64,000 nt of DNA, from NCBI GenBank assembly GCA_030431975.1, contig JAUIHP010000007.1, positions 66,554 through 130,553 on the forward strand, in the 5' to 3' direction. Shown here piece by piece: positions 23,180 through 57,334 of this stretch. Source of the DNA: a bacterium. GTDB taxonomy: Bacteria; Eisenbacteria; RBG-16-71-46; CAIMUX01. Numbering within the stretch: position 1 is the first letter of the stretch; every line of letters starts with the position of its first letter. Below the pieces are notes generated by a model. It made no database searches. It was not told the origin of the DNA and saw only the letters and a program-made list of their open reading frames with translations. The translations under genes and the position numbers were made by a program.

Positions 23180-23420
23180 TCCGGTGCGTCCGAGCATGCC
23201 GGCGAGCGAGTGTTGGGATCGAACGCAAACGCTAGGGGAATCGTCAGGAAGTACGCGCATCTGAGTGACCTCGAGTTGATAGACAGCATCCGAAAGGAGG
23301 GATCTTTCGAAGCCTCTCGAAACGGTCTCAATCCACCGGTTGTTGTCTTGGAATTCGATCGCGGACCAAGGATGGATGCGTTCCCTTCACGGGAGCACTC
23401 TTCAAAAGAAGGAAGAATCA

Positions 23421-30194: not shown

Positions 30195-32089
30195 TTCGTA
30201 TCGCTCCGATCCCGGCTGTCGTCACCCATGGACTTGTCGGGAACGATGACGTCCGTCTCGGAACCGCATCGGTACATCTGAGAGCCCCAGTAGGGGTTCT
30301 CCGTGCCTTTTCGATTCTGCAACCAGTCCGCGCCGGCGCCGTCCCGGGCCATGGGGCAGTGGTAGACGAGAACCGGGCTTTCCGAGGAAGCACCGAAGGC
30401 ACGAACCGTCGAGATGACCAGATTCGACAGATCAAAGAACGCGTCGCGCGTCGAGACCAGATTGCCGCCTTTGGCGACGGCACGGCCCGCGTCTTCGATG
30501 GGCTTGCGGGCTTCCTCCCAGCGGCGGAGTCCGGCCGGATTCAGGGTGGATGGGTCGACTTTCCCGAGTGCCTCGGTGAAGCGGGTGGCCGCGGCTTGCG
30601 CTGTCTTTTCATCGTCGAGGCTCAAGGCCGTACTCACTTCGAAGTAGGAGTCGAGGATCGTTCCCAGTTGCGCACGAAACGCGTCGGTAACTTCAGCGAC
30701 CGGGACGACCTCCTCCGCAGCGGCCCCAGCCAAACCAACTCCGTTCGTTCCGGCCGAAGCGGTCTTGGTCCGTGGATTCTCGACGTCTGCCGAACCGTGC
30801 ATCGACGACGACTTGCCTCCACTTTGCCCGCCGGCGGTCGGGTTCATCATGCTGCGCTCGCCGCGGATCTGCAGCGCACTGTCGATCTTGAACGCACCGT
30901 TCGACACGACGCGCTCTCCCGGTTCCAGTCCGGATAGAACGACGAACTCGTCGCCGGTGCGCGGTCCGAGGACGACATCGCGTCCGTGGAATCGCCCGGG
31001 CTCGGTTGGGTCGGCAACGTAGACGACCGCGCGCTCACCTGTCAGCAGCGGTGCGGTCTTGGGAATCAACAAGGGGGCAGGGTCGGAATCCGTCGCTTCC
31101 AACCGGGCCAGTACCTGGCCTTGCGCCAACATTCCCGGCTTGAGCCGACCTTGCGGATTCGGCACGTCGATTCGAACCCGCGCCGTGCGCGTGCGGTCGT
31201 TCAGCACGGGGTCGATGAACGTGACCCGTCCCCGGAACGTTTCTCCGGGCAACGCCTGGGTGCGGAACTCGACTTCCTCACCCATTCGCAGCCAGGTCAG
31301 TTCCGATTCGTAGGCTTCGAGTTCGAGCCAAAGCCCCGAGAGGTCGGCGATCGTGTAGATGGGATCGCCCGTCTTGACGTAGCTGCCTTCGACAGCGGAA
31401 CGCTCCGTCACCGTTCCTGCGATCGGCGCGGCGATGCTTACCGTGTTGCGAGCCTGACCACTCTCCTCGACTCGCGCGATCTCGTTCTGCGGAAGGCCGA
31501 GGAGTCGAAGCCTTTCCCGCGCGGACTCGACGGCTCGTTCTCCTCCCAGAACACTGCGGGAACGCAGAGTCTGAAGAAACTCTTCCTGAGCGGAGTAGAG
31601 TTCCGGACTGAAAAGGTCGAAGAGCTTCTGTCCCTTGCGCACCTGCTGTCCGGTGTAGCTGACGTGAAGGCGCTCGATTCGTCCCGGGACCCATGCGGCG
31701 ACGCGCCGGATCGCGGTCTCGTCCGCTACGAGTTTTCCGAAGAGATCCAACTCCACCTCCGCGCGACCTTGTCGCACCGGTGTCGTCTCGATCTCGGCCA
31801 GTGCCTGGGCGGACGGCGAAAGCACCAGGCTGAAAGGGGCGCCGCCGTCATCGGCCCCTGTTTCCAGCGGTATCAGATCCATTCCGCAAAGCGGGCAACC
31901 GGTCGGTTCCGGCAGTTGAATCTGTGGGTGCATGGAGCAGGTCCAGGTCGTAACCGATGCCGCTTCGCCTTCGGTTGCCGTGGGAGCCTTGCCGCCGCCA
32001 CGCAGCGTGTATCCAAGTAGGAAGACGACGACGAGAGCGGCTGCCCATCCCATGCGCATCATCCAGGGATTGCGGTTGTTTTGGGTCAT
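30191..32089 (-). CDS. efflux RND periplasmic adaptor (CzcB/CusB family) with N- and C-terminal metal-binding motifs
   Basis: N-terminal 'WTCSMHPQIQLPEPTGCPLCGMDL' is an HMBD-type motif (Cys/His/Met). The biotinyl-lipoyl and beta-barrel adaptor core follows. The C-terminal 'YHCPMARDGAGADWLQ' resembles the DUF3347-like motif. Confidence 0.85.
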   Translation of the reverse strand: MTQNNRNPWMMRMGWAAALVVVFLLGYTLRGGGKAPTATEGEAASVTTWTCSMHPQIQLPEPTGCPLCGMDLIPLETGADDGGAPFSLVLSPSAQALAEIETTPVRQGRAEVELDLFGKLVADETAIRRVAAWVPGRIERLHVSYTGQQVRKGQKLFDLFSPELYSAQEEFLQTLRSRSVLGGERAVESARERLRLLGLPQNEIARVEESGQARNTVSIAAPIAGTVTERSAVEGSYVKTGDPIYTIADLSGLWLELEAYESELTWLRMGEEVEFRTQALPGETFRGRVTFIDPVLNDRTRTARVRIDVPNPQGRLKPGMLAQGQVLARLEATDSDPAPLLIPKTAPLLTGERAVVYVADPTEPGRFHGRDVVLGPRTGDEFVVLSGLEPGERVVSNGAFKIDSALQIRGERSMMNPTAGGQSGGKSSSMHGSADVENPRTKTASAGTNGVGLAGAAAEEVVPVAEVTDAFRAQLGTILDSYFEVSTALSLDDEKTAQAAATRFTEALGKVDPSTLNPAGLRRWEEARKPIEDAGRAVAKGGNLVSTRDAFFDLSNLVISTVRAFGASSESPVLVYHCPMARDGAGADWLQNRKGTENPYWGSQMYRCGSETDVIVPDKSMGDDSRDRSDTK

Positions 32090-33546
32090 CGTGATTCTCC
32101 TTCGCGACGCTCGTTGTCATTCGTCGCGCCTTCCGAAGTCCGCGCCGCCGCCGATGGGAGGTTCGAAGTCGGGTCACCTATGAGTTGATTCCATCGAGCG
32201 ATCGCGAGCCCCAGGTCGACGCGGGCCCGGTCGAGCGACAGTTCCAGATCCAGAAGACGGCGTTGTTCCTGGATGACGTCCGTGAACGAAGAACTCCCGG
32301 CAGCGAATTGTTGCGTGACGACCTCCAGGGACTGTCTGGCCAGGGGCAGAAGATCATCGTTATAAAGCTGCATTCGCCGGTCGGCATCCGAGAGCTCAAA
32401 GAGGACACGCTCCAATTCGGCTCGAAGTTCGTTTCGCGTTTCGACGAGATCGGATTCGGCGCCGGAGAGGCGGGCGTGCGCACGACCGCGATCCGCGTCA
32501 TTTCGGTCGAACCAGAGAGGCAGATCGATCATGGCCACGGCGACTGCGGCGTCCTTTCCCCGATCGGCAACGCCGGGCATTTCCGAGTCGGCGGTTTCGA
32601 TGTACTCGAAACCCAAGGTCAGGTCCGGGAAGGACATCTTCTCGGCCAAGGTTGACGCGGCTCGAGCTCGTTCACGGCGAGCCTCGGCGGCCTGGATCTT
32701 CGGATGACGATCGAGAAGTGCCTCGAAAGTGGGCGTTGTGCTGCCGGGAACAGCCGCCGCAGGGATGGTCTGCAGGGCCTTCGGCAGTGTGTCGGGCAAT
32801 CCGATAGGTGCGTCAGCGGGCCGGTCGAGTTTCGCATTGAGCGCGGCCGCGATCGGCTGCTGCTCCTGAGTCAGACGTGCGAGTCGGTCTTTCAGCGTGG
32901 CGAGTTCGAGCTGCGTTTGGATGAGGGACGAATGCTGCGCCGCTCCGGTTTCGTAGCGACGCTGGACCACTTCAGCCAGTGACCGCATGTACGTCGTGTT
33001 GTCCTCCACGGTTTGCAATGACCGTTGGAGATAGAAGAACTCCAGCCAAAGGCGAGTCGTGTCGTACAGCAGCTTGCGTCTCTCTGCCTCGTACTTCGCG
33101 CCCGACTCCTCCGCCACGGACGAAGCCATGCTTCCTCGAAGGCTCCGTTTCCCGAAGAGGGGGAAGCTCTGTGACAGAGAGAACTTCTGTCTTTGCGGTC
33201 CGACGCGAGTCTCGACCGACTCCAGGAAGTAGGCGTACCCGAGCTTCGGATTCGGGAGAGCCTTCGCGACGCCCACGCCCTCGAGATTGGCCGTCCACTG
33301 GTCGAACGCAGACTCGAGGGATGGATTCCTGGCCTCCGTCGATTGGAGAACGTCCTCGAGTTCCGGCGTCGTGGTGAGTGTCGCGCTCGATTCCGTGGCG
33401 CGAGTTCGCGCTTCCCGAACATTCTCCCAGTGAGCCGTGGCCCGTGTTTCGGCCGAGCCGGCGCAGCCGGATGCTACGGCGAACAGGACCGGCAGGAGGC
33501 ACACGTGCGCGTTGAGCCGTGAATCTTTCCACGTGAGTAGAGCCAT
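32086..33546 (-). CDS. TolC-family outer-membrane efflux lipoprotein (CzcC/CusC-like)
   Basis: The lipobox 'AVASGC' is followed by two OEP-type repeats rich in coiled coil. An ATGA overlap couples it to the adaptor gene. Confidence 0.85.
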   Translation of the reverse strand: MALLTWKDSRLNAHVCLLPVLFAVASGCAGSAETRATAHWENVREARTRATESSATLTTTPELEDVLQSTEARNPSLESAFDQWTANLEGVGVAKALPNPKLGYAYFLESVETRVGPQRQKFSLSQSFPLFGKRSLRGSMASSVAEESGAKYEAERRKLLYDTTRLWLEFFYLQRSLQTVEDNTTYMRSLAEVVQRRYETGAAQHSSLIQTQLELATLKDRLARLTQEQQPIAAALNAKLDRPADAPIGLPDTLPKALQTIPAAAVPGSTTPTFEALLDRHPKIQAAEARRERARAASTLAEKMSFPDLTLGFEYIETADSEMPGVADRGKDAAVAVAMIDLPLWFDRNDADRGRAHARLSGAESDLVETRNELRAELERVLFELSDADRRMQLYNDDLLPLARQSLEVVTQQFAAGSSSFTDVIQEQRRLLDLELSLDRARVDLGLAIARWNQLIGDPTSNLPSAAARTSEGATNDNERREGESR

Positions 33547-39978: not shown

Positions 39979-39992
39979 AACATACGTGTCTT

Positions 39993-40184
39993 AGCCCTAA
40001 TTGGGCAAAACTCGTCGGCGCAAACCGCCTTTGGCTCGCGCCAGAGCACACCATTCGCGGCCGTGCTCGCCTTCGCCAATGCTCACCTAGGCTGGGCTAG
40101 GCTCCGCTTGGCTCAGGCTGCGCGCGGCCCCGACTGGTGCACTCTGACGCGTTTTCGCTCGACGATTTTTGCCCAATCAGGGTT
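39993..40184. repeat. MITE-like element: ~23-bp terminal inverted repeats (ccctAattgggcaaaaCtcgtcg / rc ccctGattgggcaaaaAtcgtcg) flanking ~145 bp
   Basis: Read directly from the sequence, with 21 of 23 positions matching. It sits at the left edge of the lower-GC insertion. Confidence 0.45.
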
Positions 40185-40869
40185 AGAGACTAGGGTCAGA
40201 AATGACATTTCTAGAAGGTATCCAACTGAGCTACGGGAGCAGTGTGGCCGCCTGAAATCGCTTTCGGACCGCCCGAGTCGCCTCGGGGCTGTTGTGCCGC
40301 GAAGCCACACCTCGAACGCATCTCTATGCCGAGACACGTGGTGGCCGTAGAGCGCCGCCTCTAAGCATGCTCGGAGCAGCGCGTAGGATTCCATCACCTG
40401 TCCACTCAGGACCATCCGGAGCGCGCCGAGATAGCTGCTATGGGCTCGGAGTAGAAAGAGCCCCGCCAAAGATCGGTCAGAGTTGTCGAGGTGCGCCGCG
40501 AACTCATTCTGGCGCGTCAGATTCAGGAACTTGGTAACCCATCAGTTCCCCAACCTTTCGGCTCTTCCATTACCCGCCTTTAAGGTCGGCGTTCTCGGCG
40601 GCATCACACCTCCAGATGCGCACGAAGCGCGGCATCCGTCGCCAGGCAAAGCTGAAGGAGCTCTCCGATGGCGTAACGGGCTAGATGCAGAATGTTCGAG
40701 TAGGGATCGTTTCGAGCACACTCGCTCTTCCTTACCTGTCGGCCGGAGTCCGTCTTGGCCGATGAGTCCTTCGGTCACGACGAGAACGTCCGTTCCCACG
40801 GGGATCTCTCGTTGGCGTCGGTCACAGTTCATGATCTCACCTCCGTTCTGAGTCGTGCGGGGTCGGGTT

Positions 40870-41517
40870 CATGAGGTTTGAACTGGAACGCCTGGGACCC
40901 CGAAAACCTGGGCTCTTGGGCCCCGCCCGAGCTGCTCGGCGAAGCCCGGGCGAATCAGGGCAACGGTTAAGAACCCGCCGTGACCCCGTACAACCATGTC
41001 ACGCAGCGCAGAAGAAACGTATTGTCCTCGACGTCAATCGACGACCGAGCGACACCGTGCCAAGAACTGCAGCCGTACCGGGTGAGTGTCCGACTCGTGC
41101 GGGAGAGAACGGACGATCCGATCCTCTGCAATCAGCGGGAACCGATCAGACGACCCGAGCAGGTCCGCGACCTTTGACCCAGGCAGGTACACTGGACCGG
41201 GAGGTCTTCTATTGCCCTCCATCTCGACACGCGACACCGCCTCATCTCGTACGAAGCAGTCAGCACCGGATCGCTCAATGCTTCGATCGTCCACCCCCGT
41301 GAAAGTCTATAAAGCCGCGATCCTCAGCTCAGCAGCAGCGATCATCGTCGCACACAACCACCCCAGCGGCGACCCGACCCCGTCACAGGACGACATCGAA
41401 ATCACGGGGCGCCTGCACGAGGCAGGGGAGCTGCTCGGAGTCGAGCTACTCGACCACGTTGTAGTTGCTACAGGCGGCTATCGAAATCTTCAAGTGAACT
41501 CACTGAGCGGAGGGTGA
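40870..41517 (+). pseudogene. decayed RadC-like (JAB/MPN domain) gene remnant
   Basis: Frame 41086..41517 encodes 'VKVYKAAILSSAAAIIVAHNHPSGDPTPSQDDIEITGRLHEAGELLGVELLDHVVV', the RadC JAB motif HNHPSG. The upstream RadC-like segments lie in other frames, which indicates frameshifts. Confidence 0.55.
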
Positions 41518-41706
41518 CGAAGGTGCTTCGCCTAACGTACACGCTATCAGTCATTTAGGTGCTGTGGCGCCGTTTGCCGCACCTGTCCGGCGCGACCGGT
41601 GGCGGATTACCCGAACAACGCTCTTCCTTCCGAAGACCTGAAGTGGCAAGTTCTTTCGGTGATCTGCCGAATCCTTGTCTAAGCTGGGCTACACAACCAC
41701 CGGGCC

Positions 41707-43017
41707 TTGAGGCGAGGCGTCCGTGATGGCGTCGGCCGCACAGACACCCGGCCCATGGGACACGCCAACGAGATGGTTCCCAAGAACGTCAACAGCAAGA
41801 GCAAGCTGGGCCGCGGCGGCTCGAAGGATGCCGCGGGTTCCGATCTTGGATTCTCCCTCCAGCGAACTCGGTTCCTTGCTCGGCTCCTTGAGGCGGAGCC
41901 CGGTGATACTGTGTGCCTCGAGGTCTTCGATGATGTGCGCGTAGAGACGCACGACGGCCAAGTCCTGGCTGAGGAAGACAAGAGCTCGGTTTCTGGAAAC
42001 GCACTAACCGACCGCTCCGTGAATCTATGGAAGACCCTGGCGAACTGGGTAGTTGCTGCGCAAGAGATCGATATCTCTGCGACACGGTTTGAGATTTACC
42101 TCGGCCGTCCGGGTGGCGGGTCCTTTAGCAATCTGTTCAAGGCAGCCGGAACGACGGAAGAGGCTATTGCCGCGCTAGAGACTGTCCGCAGCGACCTCTG
42201 GGGACCAGGACCCCGCTACCCCACGCGCGGCGAGGTAGCCGACTCCATAGCTGGTTACGTGGAGACTGTGTTTGGGAGCATAACAGTCTCCGCGCAGATC
42301 ATAGCGCAACTAGACATCGAGGTTGGATCCGGGGACCAGCACGCAGATCTCAAGCCGATCTTTCTCTCCAAGCTGGTGAGTGATGACGCCCTAAGCGACG
42401 TTGCACAATGGTCCCACGGCTGGGTAAAGACCAGAATTGACCGCTTGAGCGAGAAGAAGCAACCAGCGAGGATCAGCCGGGATGAGTTCCACCGGGCGCT
42501 ATTGAACTTCGTCCGTGCCCACGACCGCCTCGACATACTTCATAGTTTCGCCGGTCGGCCCACCCCCGCGCAGGTTCACAGCGAACGACTGCGGAACTAC
42601 GTTGCGCAGCTCGAAATCGTGGACGAAGACGACGTTTCTATCCTTGGTGCTATCAATGACTACCTGATGGCCGCCGCCGACCGAACTGCATGGGCTGACC
42701 GTGGAGACATTGATCCTGCGGCTTTCGGGCGCCTCGAAGGGGACCTAGAGCGAACCTGGTCGAATCTCAAGAAACAGGTCTCGATCGAGCACAACAAGAA
42801 GTCCCCAATGGATCGAGGACGGCTTGTTTGCCTGAAATGCCTTCAACATCGGTTCGAACTGGGCGGGCTAGCACTTCCAACTCACTTTGTGCCCGGCAGC
42901 TTTCATGCTCTCTCCGACGATCTCCGGATCGGCTGGCATCCTGACTACCGCCATCTTCTCAAGACCCACAAGAGCCGATGGACTCCAGAAATGGTGACTG
43001 CTGATGGCGACGCTTGA
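41707..43017 (+). CDS. hypothetical protein, first gene of ABC-3C-like three-gene module (candidate effector/sensor component)
   Basis: A 436-aa ORF with no recognisable domain. Its codon usage is atypical for the window (cta, ata, aga and agt codons). A 14-nt overlap with the next gene indicates translational coupling. The start is uncertain: TTG 41707, ATG 41755 or ATG 41773. Confidence 0.55.
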   Translation: MRRGVRDGVGRTDTRPMGHANEMVPKNVNSKSKLGRGGSKDAAGSDLGFSLQRTRFLARLLEAEPGDTVCLEVFDDVRVETHDGQVLAEEDKSSVSGNALTDRSVNLWKTLANWVVAAQEIDISATRFEIYLGRPGGGSFSNLFKAAGTTEEAIAALETVRSDLWGPGPRYPTRGEVADSIAGYVETVFGSITVSAQIIAQLDIEVGSGDQHADLKPIFLSKLVSDDALSDVAQWSHGWVKTRIDRLSEKKQPARISRDEFHRALLNFVRAHDRLDILHSFAGRPTPAQVHSERLRNYVAQLEIVDEDDVSILGAINDYLMAAADRTAWADRGDIDPAAFGRLEGDLERTWSNLKKQVSIEHNKKSPMDRGRLVCLKCLQHRFELGGLALPTHFVPGSFHALSDDLRIGWHPDYRHLLKTHKSRWTPEMVTADGDA

Positions 43018-43507
43018 TCGCGAAACGCAGCTTGTGCAGAATCCCGCTCTTGGCGCGGGCATCGTCTGGAGACTATCTGTAGGGTATCGCGAGAATCATC
43101 GTACCCATGGTCACCTTCCTCTACCACTCGCGTTCTTGGCTATTCCACTCCTGTATCACTCCGAAACACATCGTATCATCCAATCCACCCAGCGGCGAAC
43201 CGGCCTGCGAGCGTTTGTGGATAAATGTAAAGCGCCGAAGGAGAACAGGAGTGATTTGATTTTCGGACTTCATGATCGGAGCAGGCACTTCCGTCCACTT
43301 ACGTGGAGTTCACTTCGTATTGCTGTCGAGACTTGCCTAGTGTCAGTCGACCCCGCAACCGCTATGATTGTACCGACCAGCACGACAGAGCCAAGAGGCC
43401 TTCCATCTGACACTCGATCGCACCTACGAAACGCAAGCAAGATCGGTGCCTGGTTCTCAGAGTTAACTGTGTATGAAGTGAGTACAATTCTGCGAGTTAG
43501 ATTCTGA
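43004..43507 (+). CDS. small 'middle component' protein of ABC-3C-like module
   Basis: A 167-aa ORF whose 3' end abuts the ATPase gene start (stop 43507, start 43508) and whose 5' end overlaps the upstream gene. Its size and position fit the MC component of ABC-three-component systems. Confidence 0.5.
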   Translation: MATLDRETQLVQNPALGAGIVWRLSVGYRENHRTHGHLPLPLAFLAIPLLYHSETHRIIQSTQRRTGLRAFVDKCKAPKENRSDLIFGLHDRSRHFRPLTWSSLRIAVETCLVSVDPATAMIVPTSTTEPRGLPSDTRSHLRNASKIGAWFSELTVYEVSTILRVRF

Positions 43508-45487
43508 ATGCTGTTTCAGCTGAAGAAAGTAGTGCTTTGGCCGCGGAAGCCCGGGCTAGAGCCCAGGGTCCTCAACTTCCTCTCGGCAGCGGTAAACGTG
43601 ATTAGCGGGGCGTCGAAGACGGGGAAATCCGCGATCATTCCGATTGTCGACTACTGTCTTTGTAGCAGCGAGTGCAAGATACCGGTTGATGTTATCCGCA
43701 ACACGTGTGGGTGGTTCGGAATCGTCATTCAGACCGCAGACGGCGAGAAGCTTCTCGCTCGTCGAGAACCGGGCGACCAACAATCAACTGGCGATATGTT
43801 CTTCGCAGAAGATCGTACCGAAGTTGAGATACCCTTCGAGATCGATGCCAAGAACGCCACGGCCGACCGACTGCGAAAGTACCTCGACGAGCTTTCGGGC
43901 CTCTCGAATCTGGATTTCGATCTCGCCGATACCCAGAGTGGGTTCCGCGGGCGTCCTAGCTTTGGCGATATGAAGGCGTTCTGCTTTCAACCGCAGAACA
44001 TCGTAGCGAATCCGGACGTGCTCTTCTTCAAGGCGGATACCTATGAACATCGCGAGAAGCTCAAGACAGTCTTCCCATATGTTCTCGGCGCGGTTACCCC
44101 AGCGATACTCGCGGCGCAGCACGAAGAACGCCTTCTGAAGCGCGAGCTTCAGAAGCGGGCAAGGGACCTCGCAGTCCTGCAGCAGGCCTCGACGCGCTGG
44201 CAGGCCCAGGTCCGATCCTGGGCGATGGAGGCTAGGGATCTGGGGCTCACCGAGCAAGTGTCAGACGATGCCTCTTCGGAGGCCCTGATTACATTGCTCC
44301 GCGAACTACCTGAAGTGCGCGGGACGACGAGCCCTACCTCCGAGGGAATCAACGACGTCATTCAGGAGGTCATCTCCCTTCGTGCGGAGGAGTCCGACGT
44401 TGCTGGGCGTCTGTCTGCACTTCGAAGGCGTCTCGAAGAGATGTCCAAACTGCGGGAGAGCTTGGCCGCCTTCCAGGCTGCACTAGAAACCCAACGCGAC
44501 AGACTCTCAATCTCTTCGTGGCTTCAGTCCTTGGTCTCGGAAGAAACCGGTTGTCCACTATGTCACAGCTCCGTGGCATCCGGGGGGACGGAGCTTGACG
44601 AACTCTGTCGATCGTTAGCCGGCGTTGAACGGGACGCGAATCTCATGCATCAAACGCCAGCGTCATTTGATCGAGAGCTTCTCCGTGTCAAGGAGGAGAT
44701 CCAGAATGCTACCGAAAGCCTGCGTGGCGTGCGGCTGAGATTGGCGAGTGCCGAGGAACGGACCGCGGCCGCGAGGACGAATCGGTACCAGGCAGGGCTC
44801 ATCGATCGCTTTCTTGGCCGCGTGGAACAAGCGCTGACAGCCTACGATGCTAGTGCGAGCGACAGCGAGTTGGCAGCCGAAGTGGATGAGCTTCGGTCAC
44901 GACTACATGCCGTGCAACGGCGCTTCTCGCAGAGCAGTATCGACCGGAATATCGAGAACGCAATCACGCGTTTGACGACCTTGGTTGCAGGAATCCTCCC
45001 CAACCTGGACGCTGAGCGGCCTCGCGATCCGGTCGTTCTCTCCATTAAAGATCTCACTGTCCAAGTTCTTGGCGGAAACCGCCGTGACTACCTCTGGGAG
45101 ATTGGCAGTGGCGCCAACTGGCTTTCGTACCACGTCGCCGTTCTGGTCGCACTTCACGAGTTCTTTTTGGGTCTTGATCACTCCGCGGTGCCCGGGCTCC
45201 TCGTTCTTGATCAACCAAGTCAGGTCTATTTCCCTCGCCGTCTCACTCCGGTAAGGGATGACGCCACAGAGGAGTCCGATCCAACTTTCTCTGATGAGGA
45301 CGTCGAAGCTGTGAGGATGGTGTTCGAAGCTCTTGATGCGGCCATCGAGAGCTCGCGTGAGCAACTGCAGTTTCTCGTTCTCGATCACGCTGGCGAAGAC
45401 GTGTGGCGCGGTCTTCCAAACGTGCACTGCGTGGAAGAGTGGCGGGACGGACGGGCCTTGATTCCAGAGGACTGGTTAACCTCATAG
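43508..45487 (+). CDS. SMC/Rad50-like ABC ATPase of DUF3732 type (ABC-three-component system ATPase)
   Basis: Walker A 'ISGASKTGKSA' at residues 32-42. A long coiled coil spans residues ~200-500, with 'CPLC' at residue ~349, the midpoint, resembling a Rad50 zinc hook. The signature-like block 'EIGSGANWLSYHVAVL' and Walker B/D-loop 'LLVLDQPSQVYFP' lie near the C-terminus. The 659-aa length fits the DUF3732 range. Confidence 0.75.
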   Translation: MLFQLKKVVLWPRKPGLEPRVLNFLSAAVNVISGASKTGKSAIIPIVDYCLCSSECKIPVDVIRNTCGWFGIVIQTADGEKLLARREPGDQQSTGDMFFAEDRTEVEIPFEIDAKNATADRLRKYLDELSGLSNLDFDLADTQSGFRGRPSFGDMKAFCFQPQNIVANPDVLFFKADTYEHREKLKTVFPYVLGAVTPAILAAQHEERLLKRELQKRARDLAVLQQASTRWQAQVRSWAMEARDLGLTEQVSDDASSEALITLLRELPEVRGTTSPTSEGINDVIQEVISLRAEESDVAGRLSALRRRLEEMSKLRESLAAFQAALETQRDRLSISSWLQSLVSEETGCPLCHSSVASGGTELDELCRSLAGVERDANLMHQTPASFDRELLRVKEEIQNATESLRGVRLRLASAEERTAAARTNRYQAGLIDRFLGRVEQALTAYDASASDSELAAEVDELRSRLHAVQRRFSQSSIDRNIENAITRLTTLVAGILPNLDAERPRDPVVLSIKDLTVQVLGGNRRDYLWEIGSGANWLSYHVAVLVALHEFFLGLDHSAVPGLLVLDQPSQVYFPRRLTPVRDDATEESDPTFSDEDVEAVRMVFEALDAAIESSREQLQFLVLDHAGEDVWRGLPNVHCVEEWRDGRALIPEDWLTS

Positions 45488-45574
45488 CAGGGCTCCGGCC
45501 CCACTCTCGACTGTTCAGGCCCCTCGTGCTCGCTCACTTGGTTCTAGTCGAGAACCCCATCTCCTGAGGGAATG

Positions 45575-45758
45575 CTAGCCCGAACTATTCATGAAGGTCT
45601 ACTGCGATGACGAATCTGCCCACAGCTACCGCGTTGCGCTTGCCCTCACTCCTCGACGTAGTGCATCGGCTACGCCTGCGTTGTTCGGGCTGCGCGCGCC
45701 TTGTATCTGCGGCCATCTTCGCCATCTCGCTACGACCTTGATGAATAGTTCGGGCTAG
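45575..45758. repeat. second MITE-like element: ~25-bp terminal inverted repeats (ctagcccgaactattcatGaaggtc / rc ...catCaaggtc) flanking ~135 bp
   Basis: Read directly from the sequence, with 24 of 25 positions matching. Its size and GC-rich internal blocks ('ggctgcgcgcg', 'tgcggcc..tcgcc') resemble those of the element at 39993-40184. Confidence 0.45.
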
Positions 45759-45930
45759 GCTGTGTGAAAAACATACGTTGGGACCGTCTACAGGTAGGTG
45801 CTACGGAGCAGCATCTCAGCATCTCATCCGCGAGCAGCCGGTCCGGATCTCCTTTGACTCAGGGCGATTCACGATGGATGTCGGCACGAGTTCGAACGTC
45901 AATGCACATCGAGGCGAGCCCGGATGCTTG

Positions 45931-48696
45931 TCACCGAAGAACGACGCTCTTCGTCTTTACCGTCGTTCCGTCCGAGACCCGAACGAAATAGACGCCGGCA
46001 GGAGCGCGTTCCCCCCGGTCCATCCGTAGATCCCAAAGCAGCTCGTGCCGCCCACCTTCGGCGGCATGAGTTCCGAGATGACGAATCCGCCGACCCGACG
46101 CGTCGTGCACGTCGGCCTGGACCTGGGCGCCGCTCTCCATCTGGAAGGCGATTCGCGTCGGGCCGTCCGCGGGGTTGGGCCATAGAGGCTCGAGGAGCAG
46201 GCCGGATCCGTCCGCGAGGGAAGACCCGATGCTGGAAGTCGGAGCCAAGGAGTTCGGGTCACCCGGGTCCGTTCCGTCGTCGAGTTCATCCCGATCGTAA
46301 CGGCCGTCCAGGTCGCGATCGACTCCGAGACGAAGTTCCGTTCCCGGATAAACGGCTGTGACCGTCATGGCCCGGTCGTCGTTGGCCAAGGCGAGAAGTT
46401 CTTCCGTAGTCAGACTGGGTTCATCGGCGCGATCGGAAATCCAGGATCCTGTCGCGAAGTACCATCCGCGATGGTCTCCCGCCAGATCCCGGCCCTTGGC
46501 GATGAGCCCGATCTCGTTGGACGAGGCCACCGTTTCGACGATGTCGACAAACTCGGCGATGTCCGATCCGCCGGGCTGACGCGTCGTCCACTGCGCACCG
46601 ACAGCGGCGTGGGTGCCGGTGTCGAAACACATCATGAACGCATCGACGTGCTCCCGATCGAAAGGAGTCTGAAAGTTGAAGCGCGGGCGTTCGAAGAACC
46701 GCACCAAGTCTCCGACAACTCCGTCGTGAAGAAAGCCGAAGCCGCGGACGTTGGTATCTGCGCTCGGATCGAAACCGGTTTTCTCGTAGATGTTCCGAAG
46801 CTGAGGGACATCGAGATCCTGCTCGCCGTTGAAAACTTCGCGAGGGATAACGATTCCGTTCTGCCCGAACGGCAACGTGTGGCAACCCGTGCACTCGATG
46901 CCGCCGAAGAGTCCGCCTTCTTCAAAGAGACGTCCACCGATCGTCGGATTCGGGCCGACCGCGGGGTTGGGGAGTGAGCCGTCGAGATTGCGGTTCGGAT
47001 TCGGCGGATAGGTCAGGGAAAAGATGAAGCTCTCCAGATCGGCAAACTCGGGGCTGATCAGGCTCTCGCTTCTTCCCATCAGGGAGACGAACGCGCCGTT
47101 GAATTCGCCCAGGATCTGGCGGTCTCCGCGCCAGTGGAACGGCTCGGTTCCAGGGAGTCCGCGAAGTGTCTGCGTGACCAGAGGGCCCTTCATCGGGTGG
47201 AACTCGGAGCCTCCGGGACCGCCGTCCAGAAAGCCCTGGGGGTCGCCCAGATCCCATGCCGTGTGATCGGTGCCGCCGTAGACATGGCAGCTCGCACAGG
47301 AGAGGTCGCCGTGTGACGAAGAGTTTCGTCCGTCGTAGAAGAGCCTGCGGCCGGAGTGAATTTCGGCGGGGACAGGATCGAAGCCGACACCGACGGAGGA
47401 TACGAGATCGTTCGAAAGGTCGACGACATCGACGGCGCCGGGGATGCGTCTCAGAACATACAAGCGGTCACGCGCCTCGTCCAAGGCGACGCCCATTGGC
47501 CCATACCCGACATCGATTCGGCGTTCGAGAACTCCGTCGCTTCCCAAGACACCGACCTTGGACGATCCGAAAGCCGCGACGTAAACCGTCTCTCCGTCTT
47601 CGGAAACCGTGAGGTGGGCAGGAAAGGACAGGCTCTGCTCCCGCTCGAGTTCGTTGCCTTCGGAGTTCGAGTAGTCGATGTGCGGATTGAGGTCGCGCGG
47701 CTCGATTGTTCCCAGGCTTGGATCGATCACCGTGACGCGATTGTGCGCAAAGGATCCGCTCAGATTGGGCTCGAAACGAATGTGATTGAGAGCTTCCTGA
47801 TTGGAGACGTAGAGCCGACCCGAAGGACCGACCGCCAGACCGAGCAGCGTCGTTCCGACGTCGGAGAAAACCTGCGGATAGGTGAAGTTGTTCGTGTCGA
47901 CCGCGAGCACGTCATAGTCAAGCAACGTGTAGGGCACATACGAGTCCCAGGAAGTTCCTGCTTCGTCCTTCCAGCCACTGCCGTCGTGGCGAACGATGAG
48001 ACTCGTCAACGGCGCCGGCGGCAGCTCGAAGTTCATCGGCGGATCCGGTGGCGGCGGACCACCGCCGTCGGCGACGTCCGTGTGCTTGACGATCGTCGTC
48101 TGGTTTCCGCTGTCCATCGCGGAAACGTAGACCTTGGAGCCATCGGGGGAGACGGCGAGGTTGAGCGGATTGCTCATCGGAAGGTCGACCTCGACCGGCG
48201 GCAGTTCCAGATTCTCCGGATCGAAAACTCGCAGTCGATCTTCTTCAGAGACACAGACGAAAGCCCGCTCCGGTGATCCGGCAAAGACGACGTCGGTCGG
48301 CTCGTCCCCGACCCGAAGCGTATGACGGATCGACCCTGTCTCGGTGTCGACGATCGAGATGGAGTCGGAAAGGTGGTTGACCACCCAAACCTCGCCGGGC
48401 TGCCGCTCCCGGACGGTCACGGGTTCGAGTCCAACGAAAACTTCGAGCCGGCGTGTCGGCAGATCGCCGGACGTCAGGTCAAAGACGACCAGGCGATGGT
48501 CCGCCGGATGCAGCGCGTAGAGAGAGCTTCCGTCGGAGGACATCTCGATGGGGTGGACGATCGGAGCTTCGAACTGCGGGCCGTCGACCGCATTGGCCGA
48601 CTCCGGGCAGAAAGCCATTCCGAGCACGAGAGATGCTGGGAAAGACAGTCGGAGTGCGGCGTTTGCAGCACGGGCAATCGCTTCGATGTTTCGCAT
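45931..48696 (-). CDS. secreted beta-propeller / di-heme cytochrome c peroxidase-like protein with T9SS-type C-terminal domain
   Basis: A signal peptide is followed by YVTN-like propeller repeats ('KVYVSAMDSGN', 'RLYVSNQEA', 'TVYVAAFGSSKV'). There are two CxxCH heme motifs, 'CASCH' and 'CTGCH'. The C-terminal 'GVYFVRVSDGTTVKTKSVVLR' is typical of Por/T9SS C-terminal domains (FlgD-Ig-like). Confidence 0.7.
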   Translation of the reverse strand: MRNIEAIARAANAALRLSFPASLVLGMAFCPESANAVDGPQFEAPIVHPIEMSSDGSSLYALHPADHRLVVFDLTSGDLPTRRLEVFVGLEPVTVRERQPGEVWVVNHLSDSISIVDTETGSIRHTLRVGDEPTDVVFAGSPERAFVCVSEEDRLRVFDPENLELPPVEVDLPMSNPLNLAVSPDGSKVYVSAMDSGNQTTIVKHTDVADGGGPPPPDPPMNFELPPAPLTSLIVRHDGSGWKDEAGTSWDSYVPYTLLDYDVLAVDTNNFTYPQVFSDVGTTLLGLAVGPSGRLYVSNQEALNHIRFEPNLSGSFAHNRVTVIDPSLGTIEPRDLNPHIDYSNSEGNELEREQSLSFPAHLTVSEDGETVYVAAFGSSKVGVLGSDGVLERRIDVGYGPMGVALDEARDRLYVLRRIPGAVDVVDLSNDLVSSVGVGFDPVPAEIHSGRRLFYDGRNSSSHGDLSCASCHVYGGTDHTAWDLGDPQGFLDGGPGGSEFHPMKGPLVTQTLRGLPGTEPFHWRGDRQILGEFNGAFVSLMGRSESLISPEFADLESFIFSLTYPPNPNRNLDGSLPNPAVGPNPTIGGRLFEEGGLFGGIECTGCHTLPFGQNGIVIPREVFNGEQDLDVPQLRNIYEKTGFDPSADTNVRGFGFLHDGVVGDLVRFFERPRFNFQTPFDREHVDAFMMCFDTGTHAAVGAQWTTRQPGGSDIAEFVDIVETVASSNEIGLIAKGRDLAGDHRGWYFATGSWISDRADEPSLTTEELLALANDDRAMTVTAVYPGTELRLGVDRDLDGRYDRDELDDGTDPGDPNSLAPTSSIGSSLADGSGLLLEPLWPNPADGPTRIAFQMESGAQVQADVHDASGRRIRHLGTHAAEGGRHELLWDLRMDRGERAPAGVYFVRVSDGTTVKTKSVVLR

Positions 48697-53964: not shown

Positions 53965-56835
53965 TTACTTCACACGTACCAGACGTGCCGTGCGTGTGAA
54001 CCCGCTCGACGGTGCGACCGCACGGACGAAGTAGAGACCCGGCGCTACCGAGTTTCCCGAGTCGGCCCGTCCGTCCCACGCGATGACATCTCCGTCTTCC
54101 GCGGATCCTCGGAACAGTTCGCGAACACGCCGTCCACGCACGTCGAAGACCGAGACCTCGAGCGCCAGCCGTTCGCCGGCGGCGATGCGGAACGACGTCT
54201 GGTCGCGGAAGGGACGCGGCCCGACCCACTCCATTTCGAACGCGTGCCCGACGGAGAGTCCGTCGTTAGCGGTCGAAGCGGGAAGTTCGAAAGGTCCAAA
54301 CCATGAGGAATGTCCGCTAGTCGAGATTTCCTCCAACCAGTAGAAGGCGGATTCCAACGGAGCGTCGGCGTCCCAGAATTCGTAGCGTCCATCTGCCGAA
54401 CGAAGCATCTGTGAAGTGAGGAGTCCATCCGCGGAGGTGTCGCCTCGGTAGACGTGGAAGCCGGCGTGGTCGAGAGCGTCGGAGACCGTCCATTGCACCA
54501 GGCCACCGGTTGCGGGTCCGCTTCCATCCGCGGCTCGACTGCGTTCGATCCGGAGTTCAGCGAGTCGGACCGGCGTGACCTGGACATCATCCCATCGGGC
54601 GAGATAGGGGGAGGACTTGCCTCCCGCTGTGAAGAAGTCACCTCCGACGAAGAGTGCATCCTGATAGAGGGCGAAGGCCAAGGCTTCGCCATCCAGCCCG
54701 GAGCCGAGATTGTCGACGACGACAGTCTCAGTACCGTCTACGGAATAGGAGAGCAGAGAGAACGCAGTCCCTCCCTCGGTCGTCGCGGAGAACGTGCCTC
54801 CGACCATGAGTTCGACGCCGGTCGAATAGAGCGATTCGACATTGCCGAGGAACTCGGTTTCGAGGCCGACCCACCCTGCTCCGTCCCACCTTGCGAGGGG
54901 AGCGTTCACGATGAGTGTGTCCGCCGTCGGGAAGTCTCCTCCGACGACGAGATCACCGCGGTATCGAGCTGCTGTCTTCACGTCTCCCTGAATCCCACGT
55001 CCGAATCCGGACCAGACGGTGCCGTCGAAGCGCGCGATGCGCGTCACCAGTTGGTCTCCCGCGCGGCTGAAGAGTCCGGCGGCGACCAACTGATTCTGAT
55101 AGTTGGTCATCGTAAAGACCGTGGCGTTGACACCGTCCCCGACGTCACTCCAAGTGCTGCCGTCCCAGACTGCGATGTTGTCCGCTGTGTTTCCGTCCGC
55201 CTCCTGAAAATCTCCTCCGGCGTAGAGACGTCCATCCCACGAGAGGAGGTCGAAGACGGGTCCGTCAAAGCCGCCGCCGACTTTTTCCCAGACTTGGTCG
55301 CCGGCGTTCCACTTGGCCGCGTAGGCCAGTCCGACCCCGTTGGTATCGGGCACTCCGAACACACCGCCCGCGTAGAGTTCTCCCTCGTGAACCGCGAGAG
55401 CCTCGACGGGTCCGTCGAACCCGTCGGCATACGAAGACCAGCCGAACCCGTCCCAACCGGCGATGCGATTCGCGGGAAGGCCTCCCGCGTTAGTGAACGA
55501 ACCGCCAACGACCAGCCGGCCGTCGTGGACGACCAGTGAAGAGACCAGGCCGTCCAAGGTCGATCCGAGCGAGCCCCACGTGTCCTCTTGAAAGGAGGCT
55601 ACGAAGTCGATGTCGGAGCCTGCCGACTCGGTGAAGATTCCGGTGGCGATCAGTCGGTCACCGAAGGGAATGAGGTGGGTGACTCCGCCGTTCATTCCCG
55701 TTCCGACGGAGACCCAGTTTTTCGCCTCGTTCTTCTCACCCAGGTTCTCGATCTCCAGTCGAGCGACGGAGACGGCCGTCGTATCGCCGGCAATCCCGAA
55801 GAGTCCACCTGCGTAGATCTGATCCTGGAAGGACGTGATGGAAAGAACGGAGCTGTCCATTCCGATGTTGATCGCTTCCCAGGCTTTGCCGTCGTAGCGC
55901 GCCACCCTTCGCGCCGGTGTGCTTCCCGCTTCTGTGAAGAGGCCGCCGGCGTAAAGACTCGAACCGAGGAATTCGAGGGCAAAGACGCGATCGTTGGTTC
56001 CGCCGCCGACGTTCTGCCATTCGCTTCCGTTCCACAGCGCGAGGTTCGAGAGCGACCCTTGGGCGGAGTTGTTGAAGGAGCCCCCGACGACAAGTTGCCC
56101 CTGGTACTCGGCGATGGCCGAAACCTGTGCGCTCGCGCCTCCGCTGAGACCGCCGCCGACCGGTTCCCAGGTCGCTCCGGTCCATCGGGCGATGTGAAGA
56201 GCCTCCGTTTCATCGTCTCCCAGATTCTCAAACCATCCACCGGCGTAGAGTTCACCGTTCACGGACTCGAGGACGAGCACGGAGGCATCGAATCCGCTGC
56301 CCATCGGTTGCCAGTCGGATCCGTCCCAGATGGCCACACGCGAGAGTTCCGTATCGCCGGACTGTTCGAAGAATCCACCGGCGACAAGCTGGTCGTTCCA
56401 GACGGCGAGGGTGTAGACCGATTCGTCGAAGCCCATCCCCATCGGCTCCCAATTGGCGCCGTTCCAGCGCGCGACGTGTGCTGCGCCGGTATCGCTGGCC
56501 GTGACGAAGTCTCCGCCGACGATGAGGTCACCTTCGAAAAGCGTCGCCGCGAGAACCGCGTTGCCCACCCGTTGCGGGCCGAACCCACCCCACCATTGAA
56601 TGTCCTCGGGGTCTCCCAGTGCGGTCTGCGGAAAGATGGAGTGGAGCGGTTCGACATCGGTCAGCCCGGCGGCAAAGCGGCGGGCGAGCTCGCGTTCGGC
56701 TGGGGGAATGTGGTTCAGGTCGGCAAGGGTGGGGGAGGAGAACAGGGTCACGAAGAGTAGGGCGAAAGCGGCGGGAAAGACCGGAGTGAGAGGTCTGCGG
56801 TCGCGTGGATGTGTACAGCTGTTCGCCTGGGTCAC
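53965..56835 (-). CDS. large secreted repeat-propeller protein with T9SS-type C-terminal domain
   Basis: More than 15 degenerate repeats of roughly 50 aa of the form '..W(D/N)G..W...G.G.(D/N)..V.AL....LYAGG.F..AG'. The C-terminal 'GLYFVRAVAPSSGFTRTARLVRVK' looks like a T9SS/FlgD-Ig sorting domain. The start was chosen at a GTG that yields a plausible signal peptide; the longer track ORF would begin inside the tandem repeat. Confidence 0.6.
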   Translation of the reverse strand: MTQANSCTHPRDRRPLTPVFPAAFALLFVTLFSSPTLADLNHIPPAERELARRFAAGLTDVEPLHSIFPQTALGDPEDIQWWGGFGPQRVGNAVLAATLFEGDLIVGGDFVTASDTGAAHVARWNGANWEPMGMGFDESVYTLAVWNDQLVAGGFFEQSGDTELSRVAIWDGSDWQPMGSGFDASVLVLESVNGELYAGGWFENLGDDETEALHIARWTGATWEPVGGGLSGGASAQVSAIAEYQGQLVVGGSFNNSAQGSLSNLALWNGSEWQNVGGGTNDRVFALEFLGSSLYAGGLFTEAGSTPARRVARYDGKAWEAINIGMDSSVLSITSFQDQIYAGGLFGIAGDTTAVSVARLEIENLGEKNEAKNWVSVGTGMNGGVTHLIPFGDRLIATGIFTESAGSDIDFVASFQEDTWGSLGSTLDGLVSSLVVHDGRLVVGGSFTNAGGLPANRIAGWDGFGWSSYADGFDGPVEALAVHEGELYAGGVFGVPDTNGVGLAYAAKWNAGDQVWEKVGGGFDGPVFDLLSWDGRLYAGGDFQEADGNTADNIAVWDGSTWSDVGDGVNATVFTMTNYQNQLVAAGLFSRAGDQLVTRIARFDGTVWSGFGRGIQGDVKTAARYRGDLVVGGDFPTADTLIVNAPLARWDGAGWVGLETEFLGNVESLYSTGVELMVGGTFSATTEGGTAFSLLSYSVDGTETVVVDNLGSGLDGEALAFALYQDALFVGGDFFTAGGKSSPYLARWDDVQVTPVRLAELRIERSRAADGSGPATGGLVQWTVSDALDHAGFHVYRGDTSADGLLTSQMLRSADGRYEFWDADAPLESAFYWLEEISTSGHSSWFGPFELPASTANDGLSVGHAFEMEWVGPRPFRDQTSFRIAAGERLALEVSVFDVRGRRVRELFRGSAEDGDVIAWDGRADSGNSVAPGLYFVRAVAPSSGFTRTARLVRVK

Positions 56836-56850
56836 GTTTGGTCCTACATG

Positions 56851-57018
56851 GATGCGGCTCGCCGCGTTCGCGGCCTCGCCTCCGGAGGGCGTCGTGGCTT
56901 TGCCACGGCGCCTACGGTGCTTGTTTTGGGTCTGTTTTGATGCGGCTCGCCGCTTTCGCGGCCTCGCCTTCGGAGGCGTCGTTGCTTTGCAACGGCGCCT
57001 ACGGTGCTTGTTTGGGGA
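56851..57018. repeat. 88-bp tandem direct repeat x2 (~90% identical) in divergent promoter region
   Basis: Unit 1 is 56851-56938 and unit 2 starts at 56939: 'gatgcggctcgccgc(g/t)ttcgcggcctcgcct(c/t)cggag...cggcgcctacggtgcttgtttt'. A G/T-rich tract follows. Confidence 0.6.
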
Positions 57019-57334
57019 CATTGCCTTGGGGGCTTTGCACTCCGTGTTTGGTGTTGGGTTTCAGGGTTTGTGCTGGGGATATGAAGACACAACTCGGTTT
57101 GGGGCTCAAGTTGAAGGTTGTGGACGGAAGATTGCGGACGCCGGGTTCCTAACCTGCGACGAAACAGCGTCTTTTGGGGATCGAATCGGGGGCCAGAACG
57201 ACGACGGCGGATCGTCGCTGTAACGTCAACGACCCAGAAGCACTTATCCGGATCTCGTCCGCAATCTTCCGGCCACAACCTTCCACCCACGGGAAGGGGG
57301 CTGGGGTACACTCGCGGCTCGACTTCCGCGAAAG

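Follow-up and report, generated by a model that had tools for sequence, protein, structure and literature searches.

A highly probable short, DdmABC-like Lamassu operon with a predicted Cap4-type effector on an atypical segment of an uncultured bacterial genome

Systems of the Lamassu family are found in around 15% of prokaryotic genomes, and two of them are close enough to the locus described here to guide its interpretation. In the LmuACB system of Salmonella, the effector is sequestered at rest, DNA ends are bound and activation proceeds through a tetramer, with defence being lost in the K68A, K40I and S536R mutants (bioRxiv 10.1101/2025.03.14.643221). In the DdmABC system of Vibrio cholerae, DdmA consists of a Cap4-like domain and CTD7, DdmB is an MC3 protein, and palindromes act as triggers (PMC11707656). 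A 1:2:1 stoichiometry and the sensing of DNA ends have also been described in Lamassu, the short forms of which have a Walker B motif of the type hhhhD[Q/S/T/E] and variable zinc hooks (PMC12663957).

Three adjacent genes in the 64 kb window (the whole stretch of DNA that was analysed) very probably represent an intact Lamassu system (ABC-3C, short form, type II) of the DdmABC-like, Cap4-nuclease/CTD7/MC3 subtype, arranged in the order lmuA-lmuC-lmuB on a horizontally acquired segment of around 5.8 kb and presumably acting through abortive infection. They are as follows:

lmuA, 41755 to 43017, + strand: predicted effector, with a Cap4-like PD-(D/E)xK nuclease N-terminal domain and a CTD7 oligomerisation/docking domain
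lmuC, 43004 to 43507, + strand: ABC-3C middle component MC3
lmuB, 43508 to 45487, + strand: short SMC/Rad50-like ABC ATPase of 659 aa, the putative sensor

The corresponding open reading frames (41707-43017, 43004-43507 and 43508-45487) all lie on the + strand in one tight operon, with a 14-nt overlap between lmuA and lmuC and with lmuB starting (43508) directly after the stop codon of lmuC (43507), just as an earlier, sequence-only reading of this DNA had described them. The same reading had proposed an ABC-3C module with a DUF3732 ATPase in the order effector, middle component, ATPase, which is confirmed by the matches to the DUF3732 and LmuB profiles and by the order of the triad. All three proteins are matched by profiles from both Pfam (CTD7, MC3 and DUF3732) and PADLOC (LmuA, LmuC and LmuB); all three also align end to end with LmuACB of Salmonella enterica (9HQU/9HQX), at 38-45% identity, and over their full length with DdmABC of V. 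cholerae (9NY5/9UXH). The operon is therefore an already well-studied Lamassu system, correctly identified, and not a new one, the trigger specificity of which may differ from that of the characterised systems because its identity to them is only 38-45%.

The sequence-only reading had made a defensive role depend on conservation of the three genes as a unit, and the same gene order does recur in other phyla. It was found again in metagenome-assembled genomes of Pirellulaceae, Vicinamibacterales, Bryobacteraceae and Proteiniphilum, spanning Planctomycetota, Acidobacteriota and Bacteroidota, as well as in the two closest metagenomic relatives, in one of which the 14-nt overlap between lmuA and lmuC is identical. 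By locus, the A-C-B order is seen at L002, L003 (where the contig stops after lmuC), L004, L089 and L090, with A followed by B at L007. In the closest relatives a DUF4365 gene lies upstream of lmuA. A scan of genome contigs recovered relatives at no more than 40% identity. When the insert was compared with plasmid DNA, matches were confined to the conserved parts of lmuB that encode the head, at 66-71%, the genes matched being annotated as 'DUF3732 domain-containing protein' on Rhizobiaceae plasmids; the flanks had no match.

The composition of the segment departs from that of its surroundings, as had been predicted for both GC content and codon usage. The GC content is 58.4% for the insert and 52.4% for lmuC, against a background of 61.5% (and not the approximately 65% first supposed), while GC3 values of 0.654, 0.500 and 0.648 for lmuA, lmuC and lmuB compare with a host mean of 0.724 +/- 0.026. 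Among the five codons said to mark the shift, CTA (5.8-fold, p = 2e-7) and ATA (7.6-fold, p = 2.5e-4) are indeed enriched; no significant enrichment was detected for AGA, AGT or TTT. Two decayed features lie on the left-hand side of the operon:

radC pseudogene (RadC-like JAB domain), 41073 to 41517, + strand: three frameshifts
ORF remnants, 40113 to 40832, - strand: 118 aa and 96 aa in one frame, with a stop codon between them

The decay of radC, suspected from the outset, is evident from frame switches near 41174, 41216 and 41304: the fragment left in an intact frame covers only positions 51-114 of the RadC profile, and the frame-repaired translation matches positions 1-114 of 121 in the RadC JAB profile (5.4e-42). 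We take this pseudogene to be left over from the vehicle that brought in the cassette. The ORF remnants had no match in Pfam, PADLOC, NCBIfam or PHROGs, no gene is called there on the public contig, and a cargo gene that has decayed is their probable origin; their identification with the upstream DUF4365 gene of the relatives was rejected, the two being unrelated.

Around the cassette, over approximately 15 kb to the left and 11 kb to the right, none of ten large neighbouring ORFs matches a PADLOC profile. Their products have efflux, amidohydrolase and peptidase functions, and there was no sign of an integrase or transposase among the neighbours tested over the same distances. Given this lack of further defence genes, integrases and transposases in the neighbourhood, the system appears as a solitary cassette and not as part of a multi-system island, and the 'defence island' of the original description goes too far. 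No tRNA, tmRNA or Rfam family that might serve as an integration target or regulator was detected within the 64 kb window, and of 80 loci, all at 55% identity or less, to which the flanking 921-aa protein led in metagenome contigs, none adjoins the amidohydrolase, so that neither an empty insertion site nor a conserved adjacency emerged.

The decay of the neighbouring cargo, both radC and the ORF remnants, raises the question of whether the segment may have lost selection. The cassette might then be a silent or decaying relic of an eroded mobile element, its Lamassu genes unexpressed or unselected even though their frames are open. Besides the three frameshifts in the adjacent radC, the unrecognisable state of the upstream ORFs and the lack of a remaining integrase or transposase, this would fit with the failure of a consensus scan to find a sigma-70-like promoter upstream of lmuA; neither such promoters nor intrinsic terminators were found at the operon ends, and their counts did not exceed those in shuffled sequence. 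However, the scan was specific to the sigma-70 consensus, in a host that probably lies outside the proteobacteria. Furthermore, approximately 3.7 kb of three intact ORFs persists beside heavily frameshifted DNA, all of the catalytic and ATPase motifs are kept, and the geometry of translational coupling is that of the relatives. Relic status is consequently considered unlikely, and an intact Lamassu system remains the favoured interpretation.

The inverted-repeat elements said to bracket the module are present, together with a short direct repeat:

Left copy of the 9-nt direct repeat AACATACGT, 39979 to 39987, + strand: abuts E1
Left imperfect palindrome E1, 39988 to 40190, no strand assigned: approximately 200 bp, TAGCCC-type termini
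Right imperfect palindrome E2, 45575 to 45758, no strand assigned: 184 bp, 25-nt arms 96% complementary, CTAGCCC termini
Right copy of the 9-nt direct repeat AACATACGT, 45770 to 45778, + strand: 11 nt outside E2

E1 (inverted repeat I1) is about 69% self-reverse-complementary over 210 nt and folds as single-stranded DNA into a hairpin of -63.5 kcal/mol (z = -8.5); the corresponding values for E2 (inverted repeat I2) are 70.5% over 190 nt and -45.6 kcal/mol (z = -5.0). The two elements have similar TAGCCC termini but resemble each other only weakly in their interiors. From this arrangement it could be proposed that the segment from 39979 to 45778, around 5.8 kb, is a discrete mobile defence cassette with the palindromes as its ends and the direct repeat as its bounds, moved by a MITE-like or hairpin-ended vehicle with no transposase of its own. 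This model is judged improbable. As a cassette boundary the 9-nt repeat is only suggestive, repeats of at least 9 nt being common to approximately 3% of random pairs of stretches from the window; neither further copies of the palindromes nor a transposase were seen within the 64 kb window, and the palindromes are not conserved at the distant Lamassu loci L002, L004 and L007. Were the model true, a system with palindrome-triggered relatives would, notably, tolerate, and perhaps exploit, two long palindromes at its own borders. As to how such cassettes move, the palindrome-flanked context offers a minor lead.

The first gene had been read as encoding 436 aa, which holds for the maximal ORF from TTG 41707 and not for the likely protein: the start is more plausibly ATG 41755 (420 aa), as in public gene calls, or ATG 41773, homologues are around 400 aa long, and the first 29 or so residues of the 420-aa protein are predicted to be disordered. 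The product had also been said to match nothing recognisable, which is wrong. It is matched by Pfam CTD7 (PF20283; 1.4e-13, aa 298-417), by the PADLOC profile LmuA PDLC03848 (1.1e-42, spanning aa 41-415) and by Salmonella LmuA (PDB 9HQU_C; 5.8e-82, aa 30-422 against 8-401, 37.6% identity), its nearest database relative being 55% identical. A homologous C-terminal domain is present in all 39 LmuA homologues, and across 33 homologues D76 and K92 are invariant, with E or Q at position 90. By alignment D76 and K92 are the equivalents of Salmonella D52 and K68, hence the catalytic lysine is kept. The AlphaFold (AF2) model has a pLDDT of 89.2 and its best Foldseek match is the DNA-bound Salmonella LmuA nuclease tetramer (9HR5, E = 1.8e-35). 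Outside Lamassu, the fold search returned DUF4297-HerA and, more weakly, NucS/EndoMS, these being PD-(D/E)xK nucleases.

By sequence and model, gene 1 is thus predicted to be a standard Cap4-type DNA-cutting effector. The earlier suggestion that it might bear a new, unrecognised effector or sensor domain drew on a genuine blank, in that aa 1-297 contain no domain that Pfam detects at E<0.1, the Cap4 domain being missed, and NCBIfam finds no match anywhere in the protein. Nevertheless, this suggestion is refuted with near certainty, because the PADLOC profile extends over aa 41-415, the N-terminal half matches the Cap4 domain of Salmonella LmuA residue by residue, including the D..(E/Q)xK motif, as part of a full-length alignment at 38% identity, and the fold matches beyond Lamassu are to PD-(D/E)xK nucleases. 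The failure of Pfam to detect the Cap4 N-terminal domain means that readers relying on sequence or Pfam alone will mislabel such effectors as unknown.

The HMM search that had been proposed for the 659-aa protein gives strong matches to both expected profiles, Pfam DUF3732/LmuB_C (PF12532; 3e-49) and PADLOC LmuB PDLC03859 (1.2e-122, full length), and the protein aligns with 9HQU_A from aa 1-658 to 1-658 (4.7e-182, 44.9% identity). Its length falls within the 600-660 aa or so expected of a short LmuB. Lamassu ATPases of the short form are recognised by a Walker A motif Gx4GK[S/T] combined with the deviant Walker B (PMC12663957), and LmuB has both, as GASKTGKS at aa 34-41 (lysine K40) and LLVLDQ at aa 564-569. 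With the signature GSGANW at aa 533-538 (serine S534), these correspond to the Walker A, signature-like and Walker B blocks already picked out by eye; a zinc hook, CPLC, is found at aa 349-352. K40, S536, Y178 and K183 of Salmonella LmuB, which like LmuA K68 have been probed by experiment in the relatives, are all kept, as K40, S534, Y179 and K184, while the DNA-contact residue R152 is replaced by G153. That the ATPase is instead a housekeeping Rad50/SbcC/RecN-type repair protein is scarcely credible: there is weak likeness at the level of the coiled coil to Rad50/SMC (19.8 bits in NCBIfam) and, at E 0.005, to a phage SbcC-like family, and Lamassu is thought to descend from SbcCD (PMC12663957), but the scores for Rad50 (19.8 bits where the cutoff is 700) and SMC (14.5 where it is 567) are far too low, the matches to LmuB and 9HQU_A are full length, and the partners are an MC3 protein and a CTD7 nuclease, with no SbcD/Mre11 phosphoesterase alongside. 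Wadjet (JetABCD) was likewise rejected, as profiles of its MukB-like ATPase JetC reach only E 0.05-0.09 and JetA, JetB and JetD have no match. The middle component, LmuC, matches Pfam MC3 (PF20131; 1.1e-30), PADLOC LmuC (2.5e-6) and Salmonella LmuC (PDB 9HQU_D; 4.9e-36, 38.9% identity), with S61 in place of the DNA-contact residue R59.

By analogy with the solved relatives from Salmonella and Vibrio, the resting complex would consist of two LmuB, one LmuC and one LmuA, the nuclease being held monomeric and inactive because the CTD7 of LmuA is sequestered. LmuB and LmuC would bind double-stranded DNA ends, or structured replication intermediates of phages or plasmids, and ATP binding and hydrolysis by LmuB (K40, S534 and a presumably slow DQ Walker B) would release LmuA. 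The freed effector would tetramerise through CTD7, such that two PD-(D/E)xK domains (D76, E90, K92) could pair into one active site, cutting DNA with little sequence specificity and thereby killing or arresting the infected cell.

Among known machineries, SbcCD/Rad50-Mre11 resembles LmuB in its ABC ATPase head, coiled coil and zinc hook, and in recognising DNA ends and hairpins; here, by contrast, the Mre11/SbcD nuclease is lacking, the coiled coil is much shorter and Rad50/SMC scores are far below threshold. The N-terminal PD-(D/E)xK fold of LmuA is common to the CBASS effector Cap4 and DUF4297-HerA nucleases (9C1M, E 8e-6; 8ZIR, E 0.24, a weak match). However, neither a SAVED sensor domain nor a CD-NTase or HerA partner accompanies it, so CBASS Cap4 was rejected as an identity, and activation is predicted to depend on release from LmuBC and tetramerisation by CTD7, unlike the cyclic oligonucleotides of CBASS Cap4. 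V. cholerae DdmABC, or Lamassu Vc-Cap4 (9NXX, 9NY5, 9UXH; PMC12663957; PMC11707656), is of the same subtype, combining a Cap4-like domain and CTD7 with an MC3 protein and a short LmuB in which the Walker B is deviant; its genes run A, B, C, where B is the counterpart of LmuC and C that of LmuB. It is more distant than the Salmonella system (LmuA 3.8e-36, LmuC ~5e-10, LmuB 4.5e-139), and the zinc hook found here is absent from Vc LmuB (PMC12663957). In the system of S. enterica serovar Tennessee (9HQU, 9HQX, 9HR5; Li et al.), the three genes, their order and their domain architecture are all the same, with a Cap4 N-terminal domain and CTD7, MC3, and a short DUF3732 LmuB whose zinc hook is of the CxxC type and whose Walker B is of the DQ type; the catalytic and Walker A lysines, the signature serine and the equivalents of Y178 and K183 are common to both. 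The present locus matters little beyond annotation, adding to the family a divergent Lamassu of the Cap4 subtype from an uncultured, non-enteric bacterium of around 61% GC. Nevertheless, studies of trigger specificity could use it for comparison, given its zinc hook and its departures from the Salmonella proteins at the DNA contacts (glycine for LmuB R152, serine for LmuC R59) and in the catalytic motif (ExK for QxK).

Three co-directional open reading frames were found at exactly the positions proposed by a sequence-only reading, which had taken them for a candidate ABC-3C defence module with a DUF3732 ATPase and an unrecognisable first gene:

41707-43017, co-directional with lmuC and lmuB: lmuA (effector), maximal ORF from a TTG codon, 436 aa
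43004-43507, co-directional with lmuA and lmuB: lmuC (middle component), 167 aa
43508-45487, co-directional with lmuA and lmuC: lmuB (ATPase), 659 aa

The lmuA and lmuC reading frames overlap by 14 nt, and the lmuC stop at 43507 abuts the lmuB ATG at 43508. Public gene calls of identical sequence begin lmuA at ATG 41755, giving a 420 aa protein of which the first ~29 residues are predicted to be disordered; homologues of LmuA are ~400 aa in length.

The proposed family is borne out by Pfam, PADLOC and alignments with solved complexes. Searches of Pfam identify LmuB as DUF3732, since renamed LmuB_C (3e-49), LmuC as ABC-3C Middle Component 3 (1.1e-30) and residues 298-417 of LmuA as ABC-3C C-terminal domain 7 (1.4e-13), while PADLOC recognises the third protein as LmuB over its full length (1.2e-122), the second as LmuC (2.5e-6) and the first as LmuA (1.1e-42, aa 41-415). 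Along their whole length, the three proteins also align with chains from Lamassu complexes of solved structure. As judged from sequence, where every defining feature tested was found, the operon is a short type II Lamassu of the Cap4/CTD7/MC3 subtype. A coiled-coil similarity to Rad50/SMC in NCBIfam, at 19.8 bits, fell far below the cutoff of 700.

The suggestion that the first protein is a novel effector matching nothing recognisable is refuted, as CTD7, PADLOC LmuA and Salmonella LmuA all match it; it appeared unrecognisable because Pfam misses its N-terminal domain, for which no Pfam match is obtained at E<0.1. Over this N-terminal half, the alignment with Salmonella LmuA and its Cap4-like PD-(D/E)xK nuclease domain runs residue for residue. 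K68, the lysine in the Salmonella active site that Li et al. (bioRxiv 10.1101/2025.03.14.643221) mutated (K68A), corresponds to K92, D51/D52 to D75/D76, and Q66 to E90. Among 33 aligned LmuA homologues E72, D76 and K92 (436-aa numbering) are invariant. An AlphaFold2 model built from this 33-homologue alignment (mean pLDDT 89.2) has as its best PDB match in Foldseek the DNA-bound Salmonella LmuA tetramer (E 1.8e-35), followed by V. cholerae LmuA. Outside Lamassu, the model matches DUF4297-HerA (9C1M, E 8e-6), with non-significant fold matches to 8ZIR and NucS/EndoMS (E about 0.24-0.28); all of these are PD-(D/E)xK nucleases.

The A-C-B gene order recurs in MAGs from several phyla, namely those of Pirellulaceae (L002), Vicinamibacterales (L003, on a contig that stops after lmuC), Bryobacteraceae (L004) and, more distantly, Proteiniphilum (L007, seen there as A..B). 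It is also found in the two closest metagenomic relatives, with LmuA identities of 55% and 48%, one of which shares the 14-nt overlap. In both of these closest relatives, a gene for a DUF4365 (PF14280) protein lies divergently, immediately upstream of lmuA (L089 5355-6344, -; L090 391-1347, -); it may recur as an accessory gene or as a defence gene next door. The window lacks this gene and has a radC remnant in the equivalent place.

The composition of the segment supports its horizontal acquisition, although the shift is smaller than had been stated. The GC content of 39988-45770 is 58.4%, compared with 61.3% for the whole window and 61.5% outside the insert, rather than the background of ~65% originally assumed. 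The GC3 values of lmuA (0.654), lmuC (0.500) and lmuB (0.648) lie below that of 23 long host ORFs (0.724 +/- 0.026). The codons CTA (5.8x), ATA (7.6x) and TTA (12x) are enriched, which agrees with the earlier claim for cta and ata, but aga, agt and ttt show no significant enrichment. Profile matches, conservation as a unit and deviation in GC and codon usage, on which the sequence-only reading had staked its proposal, all speak for a defence module. Elsewhere in the window, a 299-aa ORF at 22859-23758 (+), with a GC3 of 0.513 against 0.72 for the host and without a Pfam match, is either spurious or another foreign gene.

The flanks of the operon contain decayed genes and, as had been noted, bracketing inverted repeats, which proved to be two imperfect palindromes of ~190 bp predicted to form long ssDNA hairpins:

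39979-39987: 9-nt direct repeat AACATACGT, abutting the outer side of E1
39988-40190: left palindrome E1, ~70% self-complementary over its whole length, ssDNA hairpin z -8.5
40113-40832 (-): two ORF remnants in one frame with a stop codon between them, farther upstream than radC
45575-45758: right palindrome E2, ~70% self-complementary over its whole length, ssDNA hairpin z -5.0
45770-45778: 9-nt direct repeat AACATACGT, 11 nt outside E2

The decayed radC reported previously is a pseudogene upstream of lmuA, with a JAB domain readable only across frame switches near 41174, 41216 and 41304; after frame repair it covers positions 1-114 of the 121 in the RadC profile (5.4e-42). The remnants at 40113-40832 include a protein-like part of 118 aa (…LLRAHSSYLGALRMVLSGQVMESYALLRACLEAALYG…), have no family match in Pfam, PADLOC, NCBIfam or PHROGs, and are probably a decayed cargo gene. 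E1 and E2 have TAGCCC-type termini and an 11-nt GGCTGCGCGCG core in common, and otherwise resemble each other weakly. The AACATACGT pair hints at a target-site duplication but falls short of proof, and ~3% of random stretch pairs from the window share such a 9-nt repeat. Further copies of E1 or E2 are absent from the 64 kb window, and a scan of metagenome contigs revealed neither an empty site nor any conserved adjacency between the flanking genes. It seems very improbable that the 5.8 kb segment between the palindromes forms a mobile unit in its own right. Public short-read contigs of the same sample (run ERR3428548), with identical genes, break off inside both palindromes (L001 spans window 40035-45604; L008 stops at window ~45710), a pattern that fits ambiguous assembly at hairpin or repeat sequences. 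For DdmABC the trigger is a hairpin-forming palindrome on a plasmid or phage (PMC11707656), and the palindromes here flank a system whose relatives reportedly respond to such structures. A scan of the operon ends found no promoter or terminator consensus, the promoter consensus being that of sigma-70 and the host probably non-proteobacterial.

The description of the locus as a defence island goes too far if a multi-system island is meant, since PADLOC matched none of 10 large neighbouring ORFs across ~15 kb of left and 11 kb of right flank. Within these limits, the Lamassu cassette stands alone, accompanied by eroded hitch-hiker genes. Its borders show no integrase, transposase, tRNA or Rfam element. 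By Pfam, the neighbours encode CusCBA-type efflux, amidohydrolases, S9, M90 and S41 peptidases, and beta-propeller proteins with T9SS-type C-terminal tails. The CusCBA-like heavy-metal RND efflux operon occupies 26388-33546 (-) and is made up of OEP, HlyD_D23 together with a heavy-metal-binding domain, and ACR_tran. Two large beta-propeller proteins (45931-48696, -, also with a weak di-haem cytochrome c peroxidase motif; 53965-57021, -) end in FlgD_ig/Por_Secre_tail sorting domains, which hint at a host in a T9SS-bearing, FCB-group-like lineage. At ~19 kb from the cassette, a 1160-aa protein (19058-22540, +) has a STAND-type signalling architecture, in which a Ser/Thr kinase domain is joined to an NB-ARC/STAND NTPase and to TPR repeats.

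Three mutually consistent studies on Lamassu from Salmonella and Vibrio (bioRxiv 10.1101/2025.03.14.643221, PMC12663957, bioRxiv 10.1101/2025.06.23.660979) describe a compact resting complex in which LmuA, LmuB and LmuC are present in a 1:2:1 ratio and the C-terminal domain of LmuA is kept sequestered. LmuB and LmuC bind dsDNA ends, LmuB is enriched in vivo at the phage replication origin, and defence requires ATP binding or hydrolysis by LmuB, being lost in K40 and signature-serine mutants. Freed LmuA forms a tetramer, with two nuclease domains paired per active site, that cuts DNA with weak sequence preference, resulting in abortive infection (same three studies). By analogy with these relatives, the Lamassu in the window would sequester LmuA, sense DNA ends, release LmuA in an ATP-dependent manner and cleave DNA through the LmuA tetramer.

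Every motif previously quoted for LmuB is present, namely Walker A (GASKTGKS, aa 34-41), the signature (GSGANW, aa 533-538) and Walker B (LLVLDQ, aa 564-569), alongside a CPLC zinc hook (aa 349-352) that had gone unmentioned. The DQ Walker B, associated with slow hydrolysis, is the defining mark of short Lamassu. Residues needed by the mechanism of the relatives are retained (LmuA K92; LmuB K40, S534, Y179 and K184; the zinc hook). Compared with Salmonella enterica LmuACB (9HQU, 9HQX, 9HR5), identities are 37.6% for LmuA (5.8e-82), 38.9% for LmuC (4.9e-36) and 44.9% for LmuB (4.7e-182); all three proteins also align with Vibrio cholerae DdmABC (9NXX, 9NY5, 9UXH), which is more distant. Two DNA-contact residues are replaced, LmuB R152 by G153 (mutated singly in Salmonella, impairing defence) and LmuC R59 by S61 (part of a triple mutant there, also impaired), and therefore the details of the substrate may depart from those of the Salmonella complex; the catalytic and ATPase residues are retained throughout. 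The locus adds a new, moderately divergent member to a known kind whose mechanism has been characterised.
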